Source: Fibrobacter succinogenes subsp. succinogenes S85
GTDB lineage: Bacteria > Fibrobacterota > Fibrobacteria > Fibrobacterales > Fibrobacteraceae
Reading direction: 5' to 3'
NCBI RefSeq assembly: GCF_000146505.1
Contig: NC_017448.1
Span: forward strand, 150,001 to 182,000
Length of the DNA: 32,000 nucleotides
This document shows, in pieces, positions 1 to 11,650 of this stretch. The notes beneath the pieces are model-generated. The model ran no database searches. It was not told the origin of the DNA and was given only the letters and a program-made list of their open reading frames with translations. Each line of letters begins with the position of its first letter. Within the stretch, counting starts at the first letter, position 1. The position numbers and the translations under genes were made by a program.

Positions 1-1835
1 TTATACTGCCAGGCTAGATCCGTTTGCATATTGAACCAATTGGCATCGTATTTAACGATACCCTGTTTCCAGCCGATTGCGTCGGGAAGCAGGCTGATAG
101 AAGCGGTTCCGTCGTCTTGCGATACATCGCCAAGATTTGCAATCATGTCCGCAATGCAGTCTTCGATAGCGTTGAGCCATTCCGTTTCGCTAAGTCCGTA
201 TTCCGTTGTCGCTTTGGTCTTATCAGCAAGAATCAGCTTATACAAGGCGTACGTTGCAAAAGCGTAGGAATTGGCCCAGCTGGTGTTCTTTGCGTTTTTG
301 AAGAATCCCTTGTCATTTGTGGCAAACCAGCCTCCTTCAAAAAATCCTGCACCGTTTCCGAGTTGTTGGTCTGCGACCAAGTCTTTGGAGCGGAGTGCAT
401 CGTCGGCATATACCGTCTTGCCTGTAGCATACAGGAGAGCGACAGAGGCGAGAGCTAAGTCGTCATAGAACTCATTGTTGCCGTTGTAGGCGGGAGTGGA
501 CCAACTTGCTGCGCGCTTATTGTATTTGAACAATTTGCCGTCGCCATAGGATGATTTTCCTTGGGCAAGAGACTTCGCAAAGTCGTACATTTCTTCGGCA
601 ATTTTTAAGCAGGTTTCGGCGTATGCTTTGTCGTAAACGGCATATTGCTTACCCATAATGGCAAGGCCTGCTGCAATCATGCCAGAGATGTTGGAACCAA
701 GTTCTCCCAAGCGCAAATCGCGCTCGCTTGCGTTTCCTCGACGAATTGCGGACAAAGTATCCTGTTCTTCGGGCTTGCCCCAATAGCCATGATCAGCGCC
801 GAAGTTACCGACGGATACGACCATGTTGTCGATGATGCCGTTGGCGAAGTTGTAGGATCGGATAAAGAAGTCCGCGCCATGCTTTGCTTCGCGGAGAATA
901 TCCGGAATGCCGTCTGTATTTACGGTTTCACTTTGATTATAGGCGTAATGGTCTTTGTCCTTGGATTCGTTTGTTGCGGCCATGATGGCAAGACTCATGA
1001 ACGCATACGACATGGTCATCGATTCCTTGAGATGGTCTCCGCAATCGTACCAGCCGCCTTGCAGAGCGCCTTCCTGCGGAGTGAACTCGGAAACTTCCTC
1101 GTCGTCGTACGTGAATTTACCGCTGCCATCTTTGGTGTGGCTCTTGTCGTGGAACCAGGATTCGGATTCCCCGCTACGCTGGATGCCAAAGAATTTTAGG
1201 CTTGCGTCACGCACCATGGAATAGACTTTGTCGCTTACGATGAATGTACTCGAGATTTCATCGCCGATTTTAATGCGAAGGCGTTTGTCAGTTGGGACGC
1301 TTTGTGGTATTTTTCCCGCTTTGAGAACGCCTGTGGACCCCGCAAAAGAAACCGTATAGCGATCGCGGCTTAAAGTAAGAGCATTCGTTTGAGCTTTAAT
1401 TGTCCAGTCTGATGAGACTTCTGTTGTCTTTGACGTTAAGTCACCTGTGACAGCAGGGGAGAGCGAATTGCCATCTGCATCGACAATTTCGAATTTAGTG
1501 GCTTCGCCGATATAGTAGAATTGCCGTTCCGTGTCCGATGTCAGGTACCCCGCCTGATTGACTCGGATAGGCGAAATATGCGTGTTTAGCGCATCGTAAT
1601 AAGCCTGGTCTAGCGAATCTGGAATAAAGGCGTTCGCCTTGTAAGATTCAGGCTTTTTTTCCTTGGGCAATAAGCCCGTATTTTCTGTATTTGCTAGTTC
1701 GAACTTGTCAAACGCGTCATTATCCCATTTGAGCGGATAGACAGGTCGAATTAAATCGTAAGGTGTTGATTCTGATGCCGATGTGGCTATAGCTGTACCC
1801 AATGCAACCATTCCCAAAACCACATGCTTACGCAT
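1..1835 (-). CDS. Glycoside hydrolase family 9 endoglucanase, N-terminal 611 codons (3' end lies beyond the window start)
   Basis: Absent from the ORF track because no stop lies in the window. Manual reverse translation from ATG 1835-1833 (GGAGG at 1840-1844 on the coding strand) stays open to position 1: MRKHVVLGMVALGTAIATSASE (signal peptide) ... RVNQAGYLTSD (Ig-like N-domain usual in GH9) ... ALQGGWYDCGDHLKESMT (GH9 GGWYDAGDHxK-type signature) ... DDLALASVALLYATG. Plus-strand ORFs 24-458, 645-1199 and 955-1224 are antisense shadows. Confidence 0.85.
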   Translation of the reverse strand, partial: MRKHVVLGMVALGTAIATSASESTPYDLIRPVYPLKWDNDAFDKFELANTENTGLLPKEKKPESYKANAFIPDSLDQAYYDALNTHISPIRVNQAGYLTSDTERQFYYIGEATKFEIVDADGNSLSPAVTGDLTSKTTEVSSDWTIKAQTNALTLSRDRYTVSFAGSTGVLKAGKIPQSVPTDKRLRIKIGDEISSTFIVSDKVYSMVRDASLKFFGIQRSGESESWFHDKSHTKDGSGKFTYDDEEVSEFTPQEGALQGGWYDCGDHLKESMTMSYAFMSLAIMAATNESKDKDHYAYNQSETVNTDGIPDILREAKHGADFFIRSYNFANGIIDNMVVSVGNFGADHGYWGKPEEQDTLSAIRRGNASERDLRLGELGSNISGMIAAGLAIMGKQYAVYDKAYAETCLKIAEEMYDFAKSLAQGKSSYGDGKLFKYNKRAASWSTPAYNGNNEFYDDLALASVALLYATGKTVYADDALRSKDLVADQQLGNGAGFFEGGWFATNDKGFFKNAKNTSWANSYAFATYALYKLILADKTKATTEYGLSETEWLNAIEDCIADMIANLGDVSQDDGTASISLLPDAIGWKQGIVKYDANWFNMQTDLAWQY

Positions 1836-1966
1836 TTTTCCTCCTTTGTTTTGGTCTGTATACGTTAATATACATCTTTTGAATGCAATTTTTGCAATAA
1901 ATTATGTTTTTTATAAATTAATTTTCTATGATACGGCTATGATACGATGGAGCTGTTTCAGTCCAT

Positions 1967-2004
1967 AAAAAACAAAACACCCCGCCACTTTTGGTGACGG
2001 GGCG
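1967..2004 (-). terminator. Rho-independent terminator, probably the ancestral nifJ terminator
   Basis: Hairpin CCCCGCCAC (1980-1988) / GTGACGGGG (1994-2002), one mismatch. On the minus strand it is followed by TGTTTTGTTTTTT. It lies just downstream of the stop codon of the displaced nifJ 3' copy. Confidence 0.6.
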
Positions 2005-2013
2005 TTTTATAAG

Positions 2014-2041
2014 GGAGATGCCCGATCAAGTCGGGCATGAC
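2014..2041 (-). repeat. GTCAT...ATCC hairpin repeat element, copy i
   Basis: Minus-strand reading is GTCATGCCCGACTTGATCGGGCATCTCC, with a perfect 8-bp stem ATGCCCGA/TCGGGCAT (2018-2025 / 2031-2038). Same architecture as 20327-20358 and 25112-25145. Confidence 0.6.
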
Positions 2042-2050
2042 ATGTTCCGA

Positions 2051-2769
2051 TTAGAGGCTAATCAGCCCTTCCGTATCCTTAGACATGGCGTCATAGAAGG
2101 CATAGCGTGCATCGACTTCCTTCTGGAGGTCGTCGGCGAGCTTCTTGGCCACTTCCGGATTGTTACGGGTGAGCTGCTTGTAGCGGTTTTCGGTGTAGAT
2201 GTATTCTGCAACCGGAATCGTCGGCTTCTTGGAGTCGAGGATAAGCGGAGCCTTTCCTTCGGCGGCGAGAGCCGGGTTGTAGCGGAGCAGAGTCCAGTAA
2301 CCGGAATCCACGGCCATCTTCTGGTGCTGAAGCTGGCTGTTGAGATCGAAACCGTGGTTGATGCAGGGGCAGTAGCAGATGATCAGCGACGGACCATTGT
2401 GAGCTTCTGCTTCCTGGAGAACCTTCAGGGCCTGAGCGTCGTTTGCACCGAGGGCGATACGGCCCACGTAAACGTTCTTGTAGCTCATGGCGATAAGGCC
2501 GAGGTCCTTCTTGCCAGCGCGCTTACCAGCGGCAGCGAAGAGGGCGACTGCGCCACGGTTCGTGGCCTTGGAAGCCTGTCCACCGGTGTTGGAGTACACT
2601 TCGGTGTCGAGGACGCAGATGTTCACGTTTTCGCCCGTGGCCCTATGATGACCGTTCGCGCTAGACTCTTGTAAGACACTCCGGTCGGCGCTCACTCTCG
2701 CCTTCGACGACTCGTTATGACGAGTCGCCTACGGCTCACAGCGTGGTCGAGACCACCGTAAACGATATC
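2051..2769 (-). pseudogene. Displaced 3'-terminal fragment of nifJ (last ~205 codons), interrupted by a ~100-nt repeat element
   Basis: 2051-2642 aligns without gaps to 6238-6829 (27 mismatches in 592 nt) and 2743-2769 aligns to 6835-6861 (2 mismatches). The track ORF 2051-2695 translates to the PFOR C-terminus (...GENVNICVLDTEVYSNTGGQ...KDTEGLISL), but its first ~18 residues come from the inserted element. No N-terminal 980 codons and no plausible promoter or RBS. Confidence 0.9.
2643..2742 (+). repeat. ~96-nt intergenic-type repeat element (MITE/REP-like), copy 1, inserted in the nifJ remnant
   Basis: This segment breaks the otherwise collinear nifJ homology. It shares TGAnGACCGTTCGCGC(C)TAGA..., GGCGCTCACTCTCGC, a hairpin at the same position and GCTCACRG with the minus-strand reading of 21275-21370. 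Confidence 0.65.
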
Positions 2770-2999
2770 TTTTGGGCGTTCCCGCACATATATGTGCGGT
2801 CGGGCTATATTTTAGGGGCGGCTGCCTTCGCTTCGCTTGCCACCCGCCTCCTAAAACGGAGCCTTGCTGTGTTCCCTTCGGTCACTCCGCAAGTCTCCGC
2901 CCCAAGGGGTCACTATCCCTAACGCGAATGCTCAAAATGAAATGCATTTTTTCCCTATTTTTGTCATTTTGTGCCATTTTATTTATGTATTTTTAGGCT

Positions 3000-4478
3000 A
3001 TGCTGGAAACGATTTGCCAAAAGACCAATGAATTCATTGCTCAAATGCCCAAGTCTCTTAGGAAAGAATACGGGCAATTTTTTACGAGTGCTGAAACTGC
3101 ATGTTTCATGGCTTCTTTGTTTGACCTGTCTGGCTTAAATAAAAGTGTCTCTATTCTAGATGCTGGCGCCGGGTCAGGAATTTTGGCAATTTCTATAGCA
3201 GAAAGAATTTTGAAACAGGACTCTTCGATAAAAGTAGAAGTCGTCTGCTATGAAAACGACCCTCATGTCTTGCCTTTGCTTAAGTCAAATTTAGACTTGG
3301 TGAAAAAAAAGTACAAGAATTTTTCATTTAAGGTCATTGAAGATAATTACATTATTTCTCAAAGGGATTCCTTCAATGGGAACCTGTTTGCACAAGAGTG
3401 TAAAAAATATGACTTGGTTATCGGAAATCCTCCGTATAAAAAGATTTCCAAGGATGCTCCTGAAGCTTTGGCAATGCCGGTTGTTTGTCATGGAGCTCCC
3501 AATTTGTATTTCTTGTTTGCCTCTATGGGAATATTCAACCTGAAAGAAAATGGGCAAATGGTTTATATCACGCCTCGGTCTTGGACCTCTGGAGCCTATT
3601 TCGAAAATTTCAGAAAATACCTAATTGGAAACACCTCGTTAGAAAGAATCCATTTGTTTGAAAGTCGAACGGATGTATTTGACAAGGAATCTGTTCTGCA
3701 AGAAACGATGATTTTCAAACTAAAAAAGCAAAAAAAACATCCGTCAAAAGTCGTGATTTCGACAACGAACGGAAATGGCGATTTCAGCAGAATTTCTCAT
3801 TTCGATGCACCGTATGATACTGTTGTGTCTCCTTTGACCAACTACGTTTATTTGCCAGCAAACAAGGATAATCTCGAAGTTCTGAAGAAAATAGGATCTT
3901 TTGAAAATACCTTGCCAAGCTTGGGAATGAAGATGAAAACAGGGTTGGTTGTCGATTTCCGAGTTCCTGAATTACTTGAATCGGAAAAATCTGAAAGCAA
4001 TGTTCCACTTTTCTATAGCCGTCATATCAAGGAAGGTAGAGTTTCTTTCCCGGCAGGAATTGAACATGAATTCGTATCCAACGAAAAGCAGAGCCTTTTG
4101 CAAAAGAATAGAAATTATCTTTTTGTAAAACGTTTTACTTCCAAGGAAGAAAGACGGAGACTCCAGAGCGGAATCTACCTAAAGCGGAAATTTCCTGGAT
4201 ATCAATTCATAAGCACGCAAAATAAGATTAACTTCATTGATGGCGAAGAAGAACTTTCTGAGTGCACTGTTTATGGGCTGTATGTTCTGTTCAATTCGAC
4301 CATTTATGACTCCTATTACAGAATTCTGAATGGCTCAACCCAGGTCAATTCAACAGAAGTAAACTCTATGCCTATTCCGAACTTGCTTCAGATTCAAGAA
4401 ATGGGTCGAATGCTTATAAAGAGCAAAGATTTTTCGGAAAAAAACTGTGATGAAATCCTTCAGGAGGCCTGCGCATGA
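3000..4478 (+). CDS. Type II N6-adenine DNA methyltransferase (Eco57I/PstI-like, gamma class)
   Basis: 492 aa. Motifs: GQFFTSAETACFMASLF, motif I LDAGAGSGIL, motif IV VIGNPPYKKI, long C-terminal target-recognition region. Its stop overlaps the start of the endonuclease gene (ATGA at 4475-4478). From memory, the size is similar to M.PstI/M.BsuBI (~500 aa). Confidence 0.85.
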   Translation: MLETICQKTNEFIAQMPKSLRKEYGQFFTSAETACFMASLFDLSGLNKSVSILDAGAGSGILAISIAERILKQDSSIKVEVVCYENDPHVLPLLKSNLDLVKKKYKNFSFKVIEDNYIISQRDSFNGNLFAQECKKYDLVIGNPPYKKISKDAPEALAMPVVCHGAPNLYFLFASMGIFNLKENGQMVYITPRSWTSGAYFENFRKYLIGNTSLERIHLFESRTDVFDKESVLQETMIFKLKKQKKHPSKVVISTTNGNGDFSRISHFDAPYDTVVSPLTNYVYLPANKDNLEVLKKIGSFENTLPSLGMKMKTGLVVDFRVPELLESEKSESNVPLFYSRHIKEGRVSFPAGIEHEFVSNEKQSLLQKNRNYLFVKRFTSKEERRRLQSGIYLKRKFPGYQFISTQNKINFIDGEEELSECTVYGLYVLFNSTIYDSYYRILNGSTQVNSTEVNSMPIPNLLQIQEMGRMLIKSKDFSEKNCDEILQEACA

Positions 4479-5389
4479 GCAATGTTGATAAAATTCGTAA
4501 TATTTTGATTGCGCTAGGCGTTCCCGAGAAACAGCAAAATGACTTGTGCTGTTATGTGTTACTGGTCATGGCAAAAATCTACCCAAAGAGCAAATGGGAA
4601 TGCGCACAGAATGAATGGATTCGTATTCACGATATGATGAGCTACATCAACATGTTCTATCGTGAAACACCCTATGCCGAAAACACTCGTGAAACAGTCC
4701 GTAAAAATGCGTTGCATCATTTTAGGACAGCCGCTTTTGTCGAGGATAATGGCCTGGCGACCAACAGTCCTAATTACCGCTATCGCTTGACAGCCGAATT
4801 TTTGACTGTGCTAAAGAACAAAGGGTCTGAAGAATCCGTAAAGGGATTCTTAAAGAAGCACGAGTCGCTCAAAAGTATTTATTCTTCGAAAAAAGACAAG
4901 CAAAAACAAGCTCTTTCTGTAAATGGTTTGCAGTTGACGCTTTCACCGGGTAAGCATAATAAACTGCAAAAGGCTATTGTTGAAGATTTTGCTCCGAGAT
5001 TCGCTCCGAATGCCAAATGCCTATATGTGGGCGATACGACAGAAAAAGATTTGGTGAAGGATGTTGAGACTCTAAAGAAACTGGGCTTTGCAATTACTCT
5101 GCATGACAAAATGCCTGATGTTGTTTTCTACGATGAGAAGAAGGATTGGCTCTATTTTGTCGAGGCTGTAACATCCGTTGGTCCGATGGATCCGAAAAGA
5201 CTTGTTGAACTTGGTAATTTAACCAAGAATGTTAAGGCGGGGAAGATTTTTGTTACTGCGTTCCTTGATTTCGGAACATACAAAAAGTTTGCTGCAGATT
5301 TGGCTTGGGATACTGAAGTCTGGATTGCAGATATGCCGGAGCATATGATTCACTTGAATGGTGATAAGTTTTTGGGACCAAGAGGATGA
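4475..5389 (+). CDS. Type II restriction endonuclease, BsuBI/PstI family
   Basis: 304 aa. YAENTRETVRKNALHHF, TNSPNYRYRL and the C-terminal PDVVFYDEKKDWLYFVEAVTSVGPMDPKRLVEL match my memory of the BsuBI_PstI_RE family (conserved NTRET...H.F, TNSP, E-V-S-GP motifs). GGAGG at 4463-4467 lies 7 nt upstream of the ATG. Confidence 0.75.
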   Translation: MSNVDKIRNILIALGVPEKQQNDLCCYVLLVMAKIYPKSKWECAQNEWIRIHDMMSYINMFYRETPYAENTRETVRKNALHHFRTAAFVEDNGLATNSPNYRYRLTAEFLTVLKNKGSEESVKGFLKKHESLKSIYSSKKDKQKQALSVNGLQLTLSPGKHNKLQKAIVEDFAPRFAPNAKCLYVGDTTEKDLVKDVETLKKLGFAITLHDKMPDVVFYDEKKDWLYFVEAVTSVGPMDPKRLVELGNLTKNVKAGKIFVTAFLDFGTYKKFAADLAWDTEVWIADMPEHMIHLNGDKFLGPRG

Positions 5390-5445
5390 AATACAAAAGT
5401 GGAAAGTGGGCTTGTGCAATGAACATGGATGAATTAGGACTGGTG

Positions 5446-6135
5446 TCAGTAATAATACATCCACTGAGGGAATATTAAATAATAAGATAACACGTCCTCA
5501 CAATCGTATGTTCCAATTCCTTCCATATTCATCCAAGCTATATCGAATTCGACGGGAATTGTTTTATCTTTTAAAATAAAATAAAACCCATGATCGTCAT
5601 ATATAGTTATATATCGCCGAGATTCCTTCCAATTTTCATCTTCAAAGTTAAAATTCACTAACGAATCTTTATCCCAATGGTCGAAATCATTTACAATAGG
5701 TTGTTGTAATGCTAGAATCATGTTGTCTTTAACCTTCGTATAGCATTCTGCATACTCGTCGCTATCTTCAATTTTTATTTCTTCGCCTGAAAGATGTACT
5801 CTGTATATTTTACGTTCTTTAAGATCGTTCGCATCTAAGCTTATCATTAGCATTGCTGTGACATTGTCTAGGACATTTTTAAATCGCTTTCTTTCCTCAT
5901 TTTCGCGATATAAAAACCAATAACTGTATGATATAAGAAAAGGAATTTTAGTTCCTGTTTCATCCAATACAGTTAATACACCTAAGGGTGTCTGCAATTC
6001 GTTGACAATGGGCCACCCATTTGCCTTGCGAAACTCCAAAATATCAGAATAACTCCAATTTGGGTGCGATTCTTTAAATTTTTGCTCTAATCCCAGCAAA
6101 TTGTCCAGTTTTTTAAGAATTTCATTCGTATCCAT
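5446..6135 (-). CDS. Hypothetical acidic cytoplasmic protein (229 aa), orphan cargo of the R-M islet
   Basis: Open frame 5446-6198. I prefer ATG 6135 (MDTNEILKKLDNLLGL...) because the upstream 21 codons overlap the nifJ terminator hairpin (6190-6215). ~31% GC, no TM segment, no signal peptide, no motif I recognise. Rich in D/E/W/Y. Confidence 0.55.
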   Translation of the reverse strand: MDTNEILKKLDNLLGLEQKFKESHPNWSYSDILEFRKANGWPIVNELQTPLGVLTVLDETGTKIPFLISYSYWFLYRENEERKRFKNVLDNVTAMLMISLDANDLKERKIYRVHLSGEEIKIEDSDEYAECYTKVKDNMILALQQPIVNDFDHWDKDSLVNFNFEDENWKESRRYITIYDDHGFYFILKDKTIPVEFDIAWMNMEGIGTYDCEDVLSYYLIFPQWMYYY

Positions 6136-6181
6136 ATAGACAAATATATAATCGTTAAATGTCAAAGAATGACATATACAA

Positions 6182-6216
6182 CAAAAAACGAGCGGCAAGA
6201 TTTCTCTTGTCGCTCA
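6182..6216 (-). terminator. Rho-independent terminator of the intact nifJ gene (island-borne)
   Basis: Stem GAGCGGCAAG (6190-6199) / CTTGTCGCTC (6206-6215), one mismatch. On the minus strand it is followed by GTTTTTTGT. It lies 22 nt downstream of the nifJ stop. Confidence 0.6.
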
Positions 6217-6237
6217 TTTTAATTAATCGTTAACCGA

Positions 6238-6861
6238 TTACAGACTAATCAACCCTTCCGTATCCTTAGACATGGCGTCATAGAATGCGTAGCGGGCGTC
6301 CACTTCCTTCTGGAGGTCGTCGGCGAGCTTTCTAGCCACTTCCGGATTATTACGGGTGAGCTGCTTGTAGCGGTTTTCGGTGTAGATGTATTCTGCAACC
6401 GGGATCGTCGGCTTCTTGGAGTCGAGAACAAGGGGAGCCTTGCCTTCGGCGGCGAGAGCCGGGTTGTAACGGAGCAGAGTCCAGTAACCGGAATCCACGG
6501 CCATCTTCTGGTGCTGAAGCTGGCTGTTGAGATCGAAACCGTGGTTGATGCAGGGGCAGTAGCAGATGATCAGAGACGGACCATTGTGTGCTTCTGCTTC
6601 CTGGAGAACCTTCAGGGCCTGAGCGTCGTTTGCACCGAGGGCGATTCGGCCCACGTAAACGTTCTTGTAGCTCATGGCGATAAGGCCGAGGTCCTTCTTG
6701 CCAGCGCGCTTACCAGCGGCAGCGAAGAGGGCGACTGCGCCACGGTTCGTGGCCTTGGAGGCCTGTCCACCGGTGTTGGAGTACACTTCGGTATCAAGGA
6801 CGCAGATGTTCACGTTTTCACCAGTTGCCATGACGTGGTCGAGACCACCGTAACCGATGTC
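6238..6861 (-). repeat. Direct repeat copy B: the 3' end of nifJ that completes the functional gene
   Basis: Same orientation as 2051-2769. Gap-free alignment at ~95% identity, apart from the element inserted in copy A. Confidence 0.9.
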
Positions 6862-9807
6862 GTATGCCCAACCGTCACCACCGAAGATCCACACGGACTT
6901 CTTCACGAGGTAGTCGGCGAATTCGTCGCGGAGGCTGACGGATGCATCGTCGGTTGCACCGGCGAGGGCTGCCTTAAGGGCGGCAACGTTTTCACGCTGA
7001 GCCTTGATGCCGGCTTCGTCGTCCTGCTTCTGGGTCGTGAGCTTTTCCTTGAGTTCTGCAGGAACGTTCACGGCTTCAAGGAGGCTCAAAGCCTGCTTGG
7101 CATGCTTCGTGATAGCGAGGCGCATACCGAGACCGAATTCTGCGTTGTCTTCGAACAGGCTGTTTGCCCAAGCCGGGCCGCGGCCTTCCTTGTTCTTGGC
7201 CCACGGAGTGGTCGGGAGGTTACCGCCGTAAATGGAGGAGCAACCCGTAGCGTTAGCGACAACCATGCGGTCACCGAAGAGCTGAGAAACGAGACGCACG
7301 TAAGCGGTTTCGCCGCAGCCTGCGCAAGAGCCGGAGAATTCGAACAACGGTTCGAGGAGCATGGCCTGCTTGACGAGATTCTTGTTGACCTTGGTACGGT
7401 CGAATTCCGGGAGGTCGACGAAGAAGTCCCAGCACTTGCCTTGCTGAACCTTGATGGGTTCCTGCGGCACCATGTTGATGGCCTTCTTGGTAGCGTCGGT
7501 CTTGTCCTTACCGATACAGGCCTGCGTACAAACGCCGCAACCCGTACAGTCGTAGCTGGACACGGAAATTGCAAATACCGGCTTTTCGGAGCCTTCGAGC
7601 TTGAAGCCCTTGGCCGGAGTGAACTTGAAGCCTTCCGGAGCGTTCTTCACGGCGGATTCGTCCACAACCTTCATACGGATGGCTGCATGCGGGCAGACCA
7701 TGGCGCACTTGCCGCACTGCACGCAAGCGTCCGGATTCCAGGACGGGATGTTGAGGGCGAGGTCGCGCTTTTCGTACTTGGTGGTACCGGTCGGGAACAC
7801 ACCGTCGCAAGGCATCTTGGAGACGGGGAGGAGTTCGCCGTTGCCCTTGATGATTTCTGCGGTGACTTCGTTCACGAACTTCGGAGCGTTGCCGTGGATC
7901 GGAGCGCGGAATTCCTTTGTGCTGGTGACAGCAGCCGGAACCTTGACTTCGAAGAGGTTAGCAAGAGAAGCATCGATAGCGTCCCAGTTCTTCTGGACGA
8001 CTTCCATACCCTTCTTGGCGTAGGTCTTTTCGGCGTACTTCTTGATATACTTGATAGCGGTTTCTGCATCGAGAACGTTACCGAGCTTAGAGAAGAAGCA
8101 GGTCTGCATCACAGTGTTGATGCGACGGCCCATGCCGGTCTTAGCAGCAACAGCATAAGCGTCGATGACGAACACCTTGAGGTGCTTCTTGATAATGGCT
8201 TCCTGAACCGGACGCGGGAAGGTATCCCAAACAGTGTCAGCGGAGTGCGGGGTGTTCACGAGGAACGTTGCACCGACCTTGGCATACTTGAGCATGTCGA
8301 TGGATTCGAGATGCGGAGTATGGTGGCAAGCAACAAAGTCAGCTTCGTTTTCGCCAATCAGGTACGGGGCGTCGATGATGCTCTTACCAAAGCGGAGGTG
8401 AGAGGTGGTCATGGAGCCAGACTTCTTGGAGTCGTAAACGAAGTAGCCCTGAGCGTAGTTGTCGGTTTCGTTACCGATAATCTTAATGGAGTTCTTGTTT
8501 GCACCCACGGTACCGTCGGAACCGAGACCGAAGAACATAGCCTGGAAGAAGTCGCTTTCGAGCTTGAAGTTCGGGTCAATGGTGAGGCTCGTGTGGCAAA
8601 CGTCGTCGTTGATACCGACTGTGAAGCGTGCCTTCGGTTCTGCCTTGGAGAGTTCGTCGAAGATGGCCTTGACCATAGCCGGCGTGAATTCCTTGGAGGA
8701 AAGACCGTAGCGGCCGCCGATCATCTTCGGCATAGCCATCTTGCCAGCCATCACTGCTTCGGAAATAGCGGTAAGGGCATCCTGGAAGAGCGGTTCGCCT
8801 GCGGAACCCGGTTCCTTGCAGCGGTCGAGGACAGCAATCTTCTTGACAGTCTTCGGGAGGGCTGCAACCACGGCTTCCATCGGGAACGGACGGTAGAGGC
8901 GGATGTTGACGAGACCGACCTTTTCGCCCTTCCCGTTGAGGTACTTGACGGTGTCACCGATGGTGCAGGTCGAAGAACCCATGGAAATGATCACGCGTTC
9001 GGCGTCGGGTGCACCGACGTAGTCCACGATGTGGTACTGACGGCCAGTGTAGCTAGCAACCTTGTCCATGTACTTCTGGACAATTTCCGGAACCTTTGCA
9101 TAGAACGGGTTCACGGTTTCACGACCCTGGAAGTAAACGTCCGGGTTCTGGGCGGTACCGCGCATAGTCGGGCGGTCCGGTGTGAGGCAGCGTTCGCGGC
9201 ATGCCTTCACATACTTTTCGTCGATGACGTTACGGATAACGCCGTCTTCGAGAGCTTCAATCTTCATCACTTCGTGAGAGGTACGGAAACCGTCGAAGAA
9301 GTGCATAAACGGAACGCGGCTTTCGAGCGTAGAAGCGTGGGCCACGAGAGCGAGGTCCTGGCATTCCTGTACGCAGCTGGAGGCGAGCATTGCAAAACCC
9401 GTCTGGCGGCAAGCCATAACGTCGGAGTGGTCACCGAAAATGGAAAGGCCCTGCATAGCAAGAGCACGTGCAGTGACGTGGAAGACCGTGGGGGTCAGTT
9501 CGCCCGCAATCTTGTACATGTTCGGGATCATCAAGAGAAGACCCTGAGATGCGGTGAAGGTCGTGGTCAAAGCACCGGCCTGCAAAGCACCGTGAACGGT
9601 ACCGGCAGCGCCACCTTCGGACTGCATTTCAAACACGCGGGGAACCTGTCCCCAAATATTCTTCTTGCCTGCAGCACTCCAGTTGTCGGCGTGCTCAGCC
9701 ATAGGACTAGACGGTGTAATCGGGTAAATTGCAGCGACTTCGCTAACCGCAAATGCAACGTTAGCGGTGGCTTCGTTACCGTCACACGCAATCATCTTTT
9801 TTGCCAT
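6238..9807 (-). CDS. nifJ: Pyruvate:ferredoxin (flavodoxin) oxidoreductase
   Basis: 1189 aa. Two 4Fe-4S ferredoxin motifs (CVQCGKCAMVCP, CTGCGVCTQAC) and a TPP-binding region GGDGWAYDIGYGGLDH. Length and architecture are typical of single-chain PFOR. GGAG lies upstream of the ATG. Confidence 0.97.
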   Translation of the reverse strand: MAKKMIACDGNEATANVAFAVSEVAAIYPITPSSPMAEHADNWSAAGKKNIWGQVPRVFEMQSEGGAAGTVHGALQAGALTTTFTASQGLLLMIPNMYKIAGELTPTVFHVTARALAMQGLSIFGDHSDVMACRQTGFAMLASSCVQECQDLALVAHASTLESRVPFMHFFDGFRTSHEVMKIEALEDGVIRNVIDEKYVKACRERCLTPDRPTMRGTAQNPDVYFQGRETVNPFYAKVPEIVQKYMDKVASYTGRQYHIVDYVGAPDAERVIISMGSSTCTIGDTVKYLNGKGEKVGLVNIRLYRPFPMEAVVAALPKTVKKIAVLDRCKEPGSAGEPLFQDALTAISEAVMAGKMAMPKMIGGRYGLSSKEFTPAMVKAIFDELSKAEPKARFTVGINDDVCHTSLTIDPNFKLESDFFQAMFFGLGSDGTVGANKNSIKIIGNETDNYAQGYFVYDSKKSGSMTTSHLRFGKSIIDAPYLIGENEADFVACHHTPHLESIDMLKYAKVGATFLVNTPHSADTVWDTFPRPVQEAIIKKHLKVFVIDAYAVAAKTGMGRRINTVMQTCFFSKLGNVLDAETAIKYIKKYAEKTYAKKGMEVVQKNWDAIDASLANLFEVKVPAAVTSTKEFRAPIHGNAPKFVNEVTAEIIKGNGELLPVSKMPCDGVFPTGTTKYEKRDLALNIPSWNPDACVQCGKCAMVCPHAAIRMKVVDESAVKNAPEGFKFTPAKGFKLEGSEKPVFAISVSSYDCTGCGVCTQACIGKDKTDATKKAINMVPQEPIKVQQGKCWDFFVDLPEFDRTKVNKNLVKQAMLLEPLFEFSGSCAGCGETAYVRLVSQLFGDRMVVANATGCSSIYGGNLPTTPWAKNKEGRGPAWANSLFEDNAEFGLGMRLAITKHAKQALSLLEAVNVPAELKEKLTTQKQDDEAGIKAQRENVAALKAALAGATDDASVSLRDEFADYLVKKSVWIFGGDGWAYDIGYGGLDHVMATGENVNICVLDTEVYSNTGGQASKATNRGAVALFAAAGKRAGKKDLGLIAMSYKNVYVGRIALGANDAQALKVLQEAEAHNGPSLIICYCPCINHGFDLNSQLQHQKMAVDSGYWTLLRYNPALAAEGKAPLVLDSKKPTIPVAEYIYTENRYKQLTRNNPEVARKLADDLQKEVDARYAFYDAMSKDTEGLISL

Positions 9808-9948
9808 GGATATCTCCGTTTTTAGGTTTTTTCGTAAAAAATCTGATCATATACACCTTCGGCGTGCATTACACGCAAGAAGGGCAAAAATCCACGCATA
9901 AAATTAAATAAGATTACCCAAAACGGACAACCAATTTTTGAAAAAAGT

Positions 9949-10632
9949 TTAAAAATTAAGCAGCTTTTGGTTAATCTCGATTTCAAGTCCCGCGTAGCTT
10001 GGGCCGAATTTTTGGCGAAGCGTGGTCGTAAGGCCATCGGACTTGCCCAAATACGGGTAATTCTTGCGGATTTTAAGCCACGGGGCGCGTTCGTGGATGT
10101 TCTGGATGAGCGTTTGCGCAATTTTTACTTCGGCAGGTCGGCTCGGGTCATAGAGAATCCCGACATCGGCATCGCGCTCGATACCATTTAATATAGGCGT
10201 AAAGCTATGAATACCGAGGTGGATGACCTTGAGCGGCGCTTCCTTAGGTGCATTTTTCTCATTTTTGCGCGCTCTCGCAGGAATTTCACTCGCGACAAAG
10301 TTTTCAATTTTCTCACGGTATTTTTCCCAAAGACTCATCATGTGCGATTTTACAGAGCTTGGTAATCCGACGGTGTACTCCGAAAAGAACGTCTTGTTGG
10401 TCGCACTGCGGTTCATGTCGACCACGAGTCTCGAGAACCGACTAGAGCAATGGAAGTCGGGCTTTAATCGTTTTACAAGATTTGAAAATACTTTATATGC
10501 ACCAATGTCGTAAGCGCGGTGGGAGGCGAGAACGTCATCGGGAATCTTGGAATCGCGGAGAGCGCGCAGGACGAAATCCGGCACAGCGTTGCTCGCATGT
10601 TCGCAGGTAATCATCAGTGCCGGAGCTTTCAT
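9949..10632 (-). CDS. N-formylglutamate amidohydrolase (FGase, PF05013-like) family protein
   Basis: 227 aa. The N-terminal LMITCEHASNAVP resembles the CEHA(S/G)N.(I/V)P signature of the FGase family, and IHLGIHSFTP lies further in. Its start overlaps the upstream stop by 1 nt (TAATG at 10630-10634). Confidence 0.6.
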   Translation of the reverse strand: MKAPALMITCEHASNAVPDFVLRALRDSKIPDDVLASHRAYDIGAYKVFSNLVKRLKPDFHCSSRFSRLVVDMNRSATNKTFFSEYTVGLPSSVKSHMMSLWEKYREKIENFVASEIPARARKNEKNAPKEAPLKVIHLGIHSFTPILNGIERDADVGILYDPSRPAEVKIAQTLIQNIHERAPWLKIRKNYPYLGKSDGLTTTLRQKFGPSYAGLEIEINQKLLNF

Positions 10633-11327
10633 TACTTTTTCTCCACAACCAGGATGTTTCCATCGTACGTCATGACACCCAGCAAAATGCTGTGAATCAG
10701 ACGGAACTTGTCAACTTTATAATAAGGACCGTTTGCCATCGGGTTTGTACAATCCGGGTCTGCAACCATGAACTGCTTCTTTTCATCGAGTCCGTAAAGC
10801 ACTACGAAATGCCCCATCGGCTCGCCGTGGATATCGTCAAAGACGGACTGGTCTTTTTCGTTTGTGTATTCGCGGGGAGAACGGTAAAGGTATGTGGCAC
10901 TGAGGCCGCAAAGCACCGGAATGCCTCGCTTGAAATAGCTTTCGAACATGCTTGCGCGGAGGTCTGCCGTAGCGACGGTTCCGCCAAGGTCAATGAATCG
11001 GATATAGGCGTCAATTGCCTTTTTGAGCTTGGGGGCGTGCTTTGCTTTGTGCAAAGCGACCAGCTTTTCGCGGAGCTCGGGCATCTTGAGTTTGCTCCAC
11101 GTCGGGTCAAAAATCTTGAGATTGTAAGAATAAATAGTAGCCTTGAAACCACGCTTGAGCGCGTCAATGCCAAGGAAAACGCCTAGCGTGCCACCTTCTT
11201 CCAAAAATTCAATTTCGGAAATGAGCTTTTTAAGGGGAATGTTATAGCCAAGATAAGAGTAAACAGCGTGTAGGCTAGTCGGTCCGCACGTAACATCGTC
11301 TGGCTGAGGGAGTATTTTCAAATCCAT
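10632..11327 (-). CDS. Papain-fold C39-like cysteine peptidase domain protein (DUF3335-like)
   Basis: The track ORF starts at TTG 11393. ATG 11327 has GAGG 6 nt upstream and gives MDLKILPQPDDVTCGPTSLHAVYSYLGY. Candidate catalytic residues are Q/C (TCGPTSL), H (GHFVVLYG) and D (VADPD). ~231 aa. Confidence 0.55.
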   Translation of the reverse strand: MDLKILPQPDDVTCGPTSLHAVYSYLGYNIPLKKLISEIEFLEEGGTLGVFLGIDALKRGFKATIYSYNLKIFDPTWSKLKMPELREKLVALHKAKHAPKLKKAIDAYIRFIDLGGTVATADLRASMFESYFKRGIPVLCGLSATYLYRSPREYTNEKDQSVFDDIHGEPMGHFVVLYGLDEKKQFMVADPDCTNPMANGPYYKVDKFRLIHSILLGVMTYDGNILVVEKK

Positions 11328-11650
11328 CGAGTGCCTCGTTATTAACCGTGGCGGTTTGATCATCAAATCGTCAATTCGCACGCAAATATACAAAAATTTT
11401 GTAGGGCTTACCGCCCAAAGCCCTTTTGAAAAAAGTTAAAAAAGAATATTATGCGGGCGGGGCCCCAGCTCGGAGTTGACGCCGACGGCGTCAGCGGCTT
11501 CACTCGGTCATGTTCGCCAGCAAGCTGTCGCCCGCGACTCTCGTTTTGCACGCTACTGCGAAGGAATAGCCTTGGCTGACGCTATTTCTTGTTACGAGAT
11601 TTTTTGATTAGTGTATTAGTTTAATGTAATTAGTTATCTTTTTTATTAGT

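Follow-up and report, generated by a model that had tools for sequence, protein, structure and literature searches.

We examined a window of 32,000 nucleotides from the chromosome of Fibrobacter succinogenes subsp. succinogenes S85 (CP001792, ~3.54 to 3.57 Mb), in which nifJ, the gene of pyruvate:ferredoxin oxidoreductase, is followed by a restriction-modification (R-M) islet and then by a second copy of its own 3′ end. Positions are those of the window, and numbers preceded by q are positions along the nifJ coding sequence. The functional gene occupies 6238..9807 on the minus strand and encodes 1189 aa with the Pfam domains POR_N, PFOR_II, POR, EKR, Fer4 and TPP_enzyme_C; it is identical to the CP001792 gene. 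Its last 592 nt (6238..6829, minus strand), here called copy B, are matched on the same strand by an orphan nifJ 3′ fragment with an open frame, copy A (2051..2642; q2979 to 3570, stop codon included).

Between the two copies lies an insert of ~3.5 kb (2775 to 6237), or 4.19 kb when measured from repeat to repeat, and the islet itself starts about 25 nt after the nifJ stop codon. Its composition is foreign, with a GC content of ~0.38 compared with ~0.58 for nifJ. The gene of a type II N6-adenine DNA methyltransferase (3000..4478, plus strand; Pfam Eco57I and N6_Mtase; PADLOC MTase_II, 3e-112) overlaps by 4 nt with that of a type II restriction endonuclease of the BsuBI/PstI family (4475..5389, plus strand; Pfam BsuBI_PstI_RE, 1e-59, and BsuBI_PstI_RE_N, 1e-33; PADLOC REase_II, 2e-84). 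A third open reading frame (ORF), ORF3 (5446..6135, minus strand), encodes 229 aa from its ATG, or 250 aa from an upstream TTG, and has DNA homologues directly after the nifJ stop codon at four other loci (L019, L062, L036 and L094). Searches of the islet ORFs against Pfam, NCBIfam, PADLOC and PHROGs assigned ORF3 to no family and matched no recombinase, transposase or integrase.

The tail behind the stop codon of copy B (6190..6237, minus strand) was characterized by its sequence, a terminator scan and a comparison of 30 post-stop loci. Its first ~21 nt (TCGGTTAACGATTAATTAAAA) look like what natively follows nifJ in island-free relatives; the terminator that comes next, a hairpin, GAGCGACAAGAGAAATCTTGCCGCTC, with a T-run (6215 to 6190, minus strand), has relatives at the left island edge in other genomes. 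We considered a conserved left-end module here and rejected it, this post-stop terminator family recurring at nifJ islands and not at other target genes.

The opposite end of the islet is formed by a conserved, structured element of ~150 nt (2771..2925, minus strand; working name 'gapel'), which we refer to as the folded element. It is followed by a short nifJ-derived piece (2742..2774, minus strand; about q2942 to 2974), the true 5′ start of the orphan, which is set apart from copy A by a 99-nt insertion ('INS'; 2643..2741, minus strand) that resembles repetitive extragenic palindromic (REP) elements and replaces 4 nt of nifJ (TCAT). Behind copy A the DNA is of the native nifJ downstream type (1972..2050, minus strand), with a small hairpin repeat, ATGTCATGCCCGACTTGATCGGGCATC, and then a strong intrinsic terminator (2010 to 1972) to which the scan assigned 17 pairs and a T-run. 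The same arrangement directly follows the nifJ stop codon at three island-free loci (L013, L021 and L065). Small hairpin repeats of several families are found in the nifJ 3′ untranslated region (window 2013 to 2050; L013, L060, L065, L069, L016, L020 and L031), for example TGTCATCCCCGCGAAGGCGGGGATCTCCC, GTCATCCTGAGCGACC...GGATCCAG and tandem GAGGTATGAG-hairpin-TTTGAGG units, and Fibrobacter intergenic DNA seems rich in such repeats.

Two further reading frames deserve mention. Public gene calls list most of copy A (window 2051 to 2626, corresponding to L001:17182-17757) as a coding sequence (CDS) of 191 aa; this is a displaced gene end and not a gene, and other islands probably have comparable false CDS calls. 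A plus-strand frame of 1104 codons runs antisense to nifJ (6511 to 9825); it is the shadow of a GC-rich, codon-biased gene rather than a gene in its own right.

Two nifJ 3′ ends from different lineages

Copies A and B align without gaps at an offset of 4187 nt, with 27 mismatches in 592 nt (4.6%), 18 of them within the 232 nt at the stop-codon end (2051 to 2282). The sole changes between the two translations of 196 residues are an I/V and a K/R exchange, both conservative. An earlier note, made from the letters of this DNA alone, had given these figures, and all of them hold on recount. Its repeat, which ended at 2642 and 6829, was too short: homology resumes past the 99-nt insertion, where 2742 to 2774 and 6834 to 6866 are identical at 29 of 33 positions, and the homologous stretch of copy B thus reaches 6866.

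The character of the mismatches is that of selected coding sequence. Third codon positions account for 24 of the 27, first positions for two and the second position for one. Counted by the Nei-Gojobori method, the copies differ by 25 synonymous (Sd) and 2 non-synonymous (Nd) changes, giving a synonymous divergence (dS) of 0.21, a non-synonymous divergence (dN) of 0.0044 and a dN/dS of 0.021, which bears out the earlier view that an almost purely synonymous pattern means that both copies were kept as working genes. For copy A's half of the divergence, a neutral model predicts ~10 non-synonymous changes; the probability of two or fewer is 5e-6.

For comparison, one genome per species was scanned, yielding about 60 Fibrobacter nifJ loci; Logan contigs L002 to L010, which carry nifJ and the islet at 100% identity to S85, were counted as S85 and not as independent strains. 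Copy A is 97.6% identical to the nifJ end of L012, 97.0% identical to those of L017 and L019, and 95.4% identical to copy B, while the closest matches of copy B itself are L018 and L012 (96.3% each). In a neighbour-joining tree of 25 Fibrobacter nifJ 3′ ends, A and B fall into separate groups: across 200 bootstraps, B was never the nearest neighbour of A, and A was the nearest neighbour of B in five. A sister relationship had been named beforehand as the outcome that would speak against two sources, and the tree does not return it. A and B are nifJ 3′ alleles of working genes from different Fibrobacter lineages. A second genome, UBA7003 (L022), likewise carries two nifJ copies, with 22 differences in 592 nt, none of them non-synonymous; there, the functional copy follows the relationships of the upstream gene and the orphan is the odd one.

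Which of the two S85 copies continues the functional gene can be read from S85-private alleles, that is, positions at which the S85 sequence differs from every available relative. These number 68 in the 2941 nt upstream (q1 to 2941; 2.31 per 100 nt), 15 in the 592 nt of copy B (2.53 per 100 nt, spread from q2985 to q3564) and 2 in the 592 nt of copy A (0.34 per 100 nt). By Fisher's test, copy A departs from the upstream part of the gene (P=5e-4) and from copy B (P=0.002), with copy B matching the rest of nifJ (P=0.77). A four-relative set points in the same direction (P=0.011 for A against upstream, 0.89 for B against upstream and 0.04 for A against B). A more distant clade from horse faeces has similar shares of these private alleles, 55% of those upstream and 61% of those in copy B. 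We also tested for reciprocal chimerism of the repeats, as donor and recipient arms would show it, and found none: private alleles span all of B and are nearly absent from A. By these counts, copy B is the collinear continuation of S85 nifJ over the whole arm, and copy A belongs to another lineage throughout.

The crowding of mismatches near the stop codon, which the earlier note had proposed as the mark of a crossover or conversion tract, says less. A uniform spread is disfavoured (P=0.0036), but 48% of the pairwise differences among 15 related nifJ 3′ ends lie in those same 232 nt, and measured against that baseline the excess has a P of only 0.043. The gradient is mostly ordinary background rate heterogeneity and is only weakly informative.

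The neighbourhood of nifJ shows a contrast of its own. The genes just upstream (window 9808 to 11500) are 74 to 83% identical between S85 and other species where nifJ is 94 to 95% identical (L017 and L066), the range being 74 to 79% for the formylglutamate amidohydrolase-like and C39-like peptidase genes next to it. Some 110 nt ahead of the nifJ start codon, 95% identity to the nifJ clade gives way to about 75%. In the species closest by its flanks (L039, 83.5%), nifJ is merely 90% identical. This contrast reflects either extreme synonymous constraint or an exchange of nifJ across species, possibly by hitch-hiking with islands.

A recurrent layout behind housekeeping genes

The earlier note had treated the S85 locus as a one-off event. 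It is instead one case of a structured architecture, gene, variable defence-rich cargo, folded element and orphan 3′ fragment, that recurs in many Fibrobacter genomes. An exact search of metagenome contigs with the 23-nt core of the folded element recovered at least 120 stretches, predominantly from rumen samples. At nifJ the recurrent order is full nifJ, cargo, folded element, orphan nifJ and native terminator. The S85 junction at q2942, that is, the one preceding the 2742 to 2774 piece, is found again in L022, L062, L069, L031 and L036 and in metagenome contigs L091, L142, L116 and L186, and the same junction comes with different cargo in at least nine genomes. Other orphans start elsewhere in nifJ, at q2288/2292 (L026, L034 and L129), q2551 (L097) or q1945 (L024). 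Contigs of metagenome-assembled genomes (MAGs) in many cases break off within the 3′ end of nifJ, and in some MAGs nifJ is matched twice. Uninterrupted nifJ followed directly by the native terminator, in turn, is seen at the island-free sites of four other species (L013, L017, L021 and L065).

The layout extends to other genes. On contigs with enough flank, the DNA behind the folded element repeats the DNA ahead of the cargo over 400 to 1160 nt at 81 to 97% identity, and repeat-flanked cargo of this kind lies at eight non-nifJ loci (L092, L131, L132, L179, L193, L202, L206 and L208). Pfam identifies the duplicated genes as carB, the gene of an iron-sulfur subunit of the sdhB type, a thrS-like gene of a class II aminoacyl-tRNA synthetase, valS, and leuS-like and ileS-like genes of class I synthetases. 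Between the paired copies, the proportion of synonymous differences (pS) is 0.2 to 0.54, with a ratio of non-synonymous to synonymous proportions (pN/pS) of 0.01 to 0.17, and the orphan frames are open except for the valS orphan of L193, which has two stops; its intact partner also shows one in that alignment. L201 has two islands in succession, both with a carB orphan behind them, the pattern expected of sequential insertion. At two loci the duplicate begins at, or within a few bases of, the start codon of the target, such that nearly the whole gene is doubled (L109:33-155, and L132 at 487 to 1217 of the oriented copy); the target in L132 is sdhB-type, that in L109 a small membrane-protein gene which looks by eye like an ATPase c/K subunit and has no Pfam match.

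What stands behind the element is not always an orphan. Among the matches listed, the downstream contexts of 89 usable instances fall into 42 families, comprising orphans or further cassettes. L094, of another lineage, carries the S85 islet beside nifJ, 92.4% identical over 3.46 kb; there the folded element is followed by another cassette and not by an orphan. A linkage of copy B alleles to the islet was considered and rejected on the same locus, the nifJ end of L094 lacking the distinctive alleles of B. Likewise rejected was the idea of an orphan clade travelling with the island, as the orphans of different genomes form no clade.

For a survey of the cargo, ORFs near the folded element were clustered and 145 representatives scanned with Pfam. 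They include DNA methylases, LlaJI, DpnII and ResIII nucleases, BrxL, AIPR and YhcG nucleases, as well as proteins of toxin-antitoxin type, PIN proteins among them, and paralogous lipoproteins of Fibrobacter. Not one family of recombinases, transposases, relaxases or reverse transcriptases is represented twice or more among these 145 neighbouring proteins. One cargo, in L142, carries a DUF3800-XI RNA just past the nifJ stop codon (452 to 502; Rfam RF02975, 41.4 bits, above the gathering score), and the cargo of L026 shows a DUF3800-like protein. A literature search on Fibrobacter repeats or islands returned nothing relevant.

The folded element and the REP-like insertion

In S85 the folded element has its invariant core, TTAGGGATAGTGACCCCTTGGGG, at 2922 to 2900 and ends in GGGAACGCCCAAA. 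We aligned 59 copies and derived a structure with RNAalifold: a closing helix, GCGUU/AACGC, encloses three hairpins whose sequences vary among copies while their pairing is kept, and the single-stranded stretches GCGUUAGGGAUAGUGACCCCUUGGGG, AAUAUAGCCCGAC and GGGAACGCCC are invariant. Across the alignment, 97.8% of cells are paired, compared with 80% when columns are shuffled and 34 to 55% when partners are slid. Compensatory changes are seen at 18 pairs, with a covariation score of 0.442 vs 0.123 and 374 vs 126 cells changed on both sides. Certain U.G and G.U pairs are invariant, and the fold is better on the sense strand (z = -2.8) than on the antisense strand (z = -1.4). These invariant wobble pairs and the better sense-strand scores indicate that the element works single-stranded, in the same orientation as its target gene, and probably as RNA.

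Known families gave no match: Rfam 15 returned nothing at E<=1 in window 1800 to 3100, nor at E<=0.5 in 12 loci where folded element and insertion occur together. A phage origin was considered and dropped, the cores of both elements being absent from IMG/VR. The organization is also wrong for an integron attC site, GCGUU/AACGC closing a three-hairpin junction and not one hairpin with RYYYAAC...GTTRRRY; no integron integrase or attI was seen in the window and the compared loci, the whole genome not having been searched.

The S85 copy is a mosaic. Its 5′ two-thirds are 94 to 96% like those of L026 and L034, which have the other nifJ junction, and its 3′ hairpin is like that of L022; recombination must therefore have occurred within the folded element. 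It occurs once in the 32-kb window. The short-read contigs L002 to L010 end at or just inside its start (window ~2917 to 3000), which suggests that it is multi-copy in the S85 genome.

Between the terminal GGGAACGCCCAAA and the target sequence, the junctions have 5 to 20 nt of A/G-rich filler. We looked for a target motif, such as a target-adjacent motif (TAM), at orphan starts and found none shared, save for ATCGGT at two nifJ sites. With filler and motif-free positions, the join has the look of a rare illegitimate event, not of a site-specific one. We also rejected the idea that the folded element supplies a start codon for in-frame translation of the orphan, the frame being out of register at the one junction read by eye (L097).

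The 99-nt insertion contains GTAG and a perfect hairpin, GCCGTAGGCGACTCGTCATAACGAGTCGTC, between imperfect terminal inverted repeats, CTGTGAGCCGT...ACGGTCATCATAG, and its sense strand folds with z = -3.0. Related insertions of 73 to 102 nt are present in nifJ orphans at q2105, q2529, q2799, q2929 and q2974 and in carB, sdhB-type and valS orphans; where the junctions are readable, mostly 3 to 5 nt of target are replaced. In 1.37 Mb of related DNA, a sample centred on loci that carry the folded element, 21 of 23 type-1 insertions lie downstream of it on the same strand, and their distance from its end clusters at 35 to 56 nt. The densest case is the 1.6-kb nifJ orphan of L024 (1858 to 3836), which holds four REP-like insertions, one variant type in reverse, and is far denser in them than DNA outside orphans.

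The insertion is secondary, because L031 has the S85-type junction without it and is otherwise identical. A mechanistic link between insertion and folded element may exist. Special targeting would, however, be unneeded if insertions near the junction simply stayed linked to it at each transfer while the distal orphan was replaced. A group II intron with a domain V was tried as a reading of the insertion and rejected: the likeness (GAGCCGUA) is superficial, and removal leaves the frame unrestored (net +95 nt). REP elements are high-copy and extragenic, with a GTAG motif and a palindromic hairpin, and are linked to RAYT transposases. The Fibrobacter insertions are alike in being small non-coding repeats with GTAG and a perfect palindromic hairpin; unlike REPs, they sit almost only inside orphans downstream of the folded element, in a sample centred there, and replace 3 to 5 nt of target.

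How the islands may spread

As the best explanation overall, to which we give about an even chance, we propose that these are recombinase-less islands that lodge behind housekeeping genes and spread by homologous recombination through the flanking gene. The junction between element and orphan would be created rarely, by an illegitimate join, as the arbitrary gene positions and the A/G-rich filler lead us to infer. Once made, it would be inherited, and homologous recombination would carry it from lineage to lineage, using the housekeeping gene as homology at the left and the orphan with the DNA behind it at the right; cargo could be swapped between gene and folded element. The junction-proximal part of the orphan would then be old and gather REP-like insertions, whereas its distal part would time and again give way to a new allele that looks functional. 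An ordinary double exchange with a linear fragment whose arms overlap, the left exchange falling upstream of the right, would yield the observed structure; a circle would be unneeded. In S85 the left exchange would have lain upstream of the arm, possibly upstream of the whole gene. Since the whole of S85 nifJ runs on collinearly into copy B, the most economical history would be that the islet arrived with a whole donor nifJ and displaced the resident 3′ end, which became copy A. The converse, in which copy A is a passenger or was later overwritten, may also hold.

Several observations weigh against this explanation. The resident allele of the S85 lineage is a reconstruction, the islet-free comparisons all coming from other species, and 'native' is itself ill-defined at a locus where nifJ is far more similar between species than its flanks. 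The nifJ end of L094, lacking B's alleles, means that no allele is stably linked to the islet, and the failure of orphans to form a clade across genomes is as compatible with overwriting as with displacement. Dedicated machinery, beyond what homologous recombination by itself accounts for, is hinted at by the sharply defined and conserved 3′ end of the element, by the bias of insertions to 35 to 56 nt and by the orphan-less cassette junctions of L094. Homologous recombination, finally, is deduced here and not directly seen.

Overwriting leads to an alternative that we consider unlikely, in which the island is a long-term resident, homologous recombination with DNA of an island-free strain from a different lineage has recently replaced copy A, and neither copy came with the islet. 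It would account for a copy A that is intact and clade-typical though non-functional, for orphans of different genomes that do not cluster, and for the junction-proximal 33 nt and the REP-like insertion looking older than the rest of A. R-M systems are addictive, in that post-segregational killing makes their loss costly; an exchange of the orphan would be neutral, but one that took in the functional end and the flank behind it would remove such a system. This history needs an extra event, however, and its tract boundaries have no direct support, the first 141 nt after the insertion carrying too little variation.

Distinctly unlikely, though suggested by the folded element itself, is site-specific or transposition-like integration by a trans-acting enzyme that recognizes it (HUH/RAYT-type, integron-like or RNA-guided). 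A conserved and precisely ended element of ~150 nt with invariant junction nucleotides and covarying hairpins would suit such an enzyme, as would its strand specificity, its invariant G.U pairs and its presence in at least 120 copies at cassette ends; so would cassette-to-cassette junctions without an orphan and co-oriented REP-like insertions that cluster near its end. But no enzyme of this kind is among the 145 neighbouring proteins, the target junctions share no motif and are separated from the element by variable filler, the arms are long and variable (0.4 to 1.6 kb), unlike att cores, and the element lacks attC organization. The earlier note had named RecA-type recombination, not a dedicated recombinase, as the mobility mechanism. 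The islet indeed has no recognizable recombinase, but 'no dedicated machinery' cannot be concluded from this, because an enzyme may act in trans.

More doubtful still is integration of the Campbell type, in which a circular DNA with the islet and a donor nifJ 3′ arm enters by one RecA crossover within the 592-nt arm. The topology would be reproduced exactly, the junction of element and arm being the joint of the circle, no recombinase would be needed in cis, and the arms would be alleles of different lineages, as they are. It predicts a chimeric switch, however, and a crossover inside the arm does not fit, because neither copy shows one: B is S85-like from q2985 to q3564 and A foreign-like throughout. 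The crossover would be forced into the last ~6 nt before the stop codon, far too short for RecA to use, and the mismatch gradient barely exceeds background. The single crossover proposed in the earlier note thus keeps its alleles of two lineages and loses its place within the arm. In-situ duplication of the nifJ 3′ end at R-M insertion, with the copies diverging or decaying in place, is excluded despite a topology identical to the R-M class of PMC2853133: a non-functional copy could not have accumulated differences with such a third-position bias and a dN/dS of 0.02, and either copy has nearer relatives in other genomes than its partner.

Islands spreading through the flanking gene have points in common with several known systems. 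R-M insertion with long target duplication (Nobusato et al. 2000; Furuta et al. 2010, PMC2853133) involves R and M genes, no mobility gene, an insert of <20 kb and target repeats of >30 bp, by a mechanism that is unknown. The S85 islet has R and M genes inside, an insert of ~3.5 kb, direct repeats of 592 and 33 nt, no matched mobility gene (ORF3 being without a family) and counterparts with uninterrupted nifJ in the four other species named above. It shares with that class the R-M genes, the lack of a mobility gene and target repeats of hundreds of bp. It differs in that its repeats are diverged alleles, where those are near-identical, in a conserved folded terminus common to more than 100 other islands whose related cargo is often non-R-M, and in targets that are the 3′ parts of housekeeping genes with the functional frame restored.

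Other comparisons concern the displaced gene end. Phage 21 and e14 in icd, tRNA-gene islands and tycheposons carry a replacement 3′ end for their target and use a tyrosine integrase with a short fixed core. As in these elements, the Fibrobacter target stays intact, a displaced partial 3′ copy stands at the far end and arrays form, as in L201. Unlike them, the islands have no integrase, their arms are variable and their junctions contain filler, and the copy that looks foreign in S85 is the orphan, not the functional end. No fixed short identical core was found at the two junctions; orphans begin at q1945, q2288/2292, q2551 or q2942 in nifJ and at arbitrary positions in other genes. In rhs and cdiA loci, recombination within the conserved portion of the gene brings in a new 3′ end, and the old one is left downstream as an orphan. 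The displacement of the previous 3′ end is alike; there, however, the ends encode different toxins, whereas here nearly the same protein is encoded and the payload lies between. A diversity-generating retroelement was ruled out: the 27 differences involve all bases in both directions and are not adenine-specific, and the islet has no reverse transcriptase. Minimal mobile elements of Neisseria and core-gene-flanked defence hotspots are cassettes without mobility genes, swapped by recombination in their flanks. The Fibrobacter islands resemble them in the lack of mobility genes, defence-rich cargo and homologous exchange in conserved flanks, but those cassettes lie between two different intact core genes, with no gene-end duplication and no structured terminus.

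Tentatively, we also put forward the possibility that the folded element and the co-oriented REP-like insertions mark an undescribed class of non-autonomous cassettes in Fibrobacter, lodged behind conserved housekeeping genes that a second 3′ copy keeps intact, and that not general recombination alone but a strand-specific enzyme acting in trans, or machinery dependent on RNA, moves or targets them. As a corollary, defence islands would drag alleles of nifJ and other essential genes across species boundaries.

The locus offers a natural model for R-M insertion with long target duplication, with many independent instances and a conserved cis element, and it flags a strongly covarying structured element that has no Rfam family. 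If alleles of essential genes hitch-hike with defence islands, as they may, phylogenies built on one gene, nifJ for instance, would be distorted. For this rumen cellulolytic genus, the picture would be one of defence and accessory genes parked behind essential genes, bounded by duplications and exchanged between species without a recombinase of their own.

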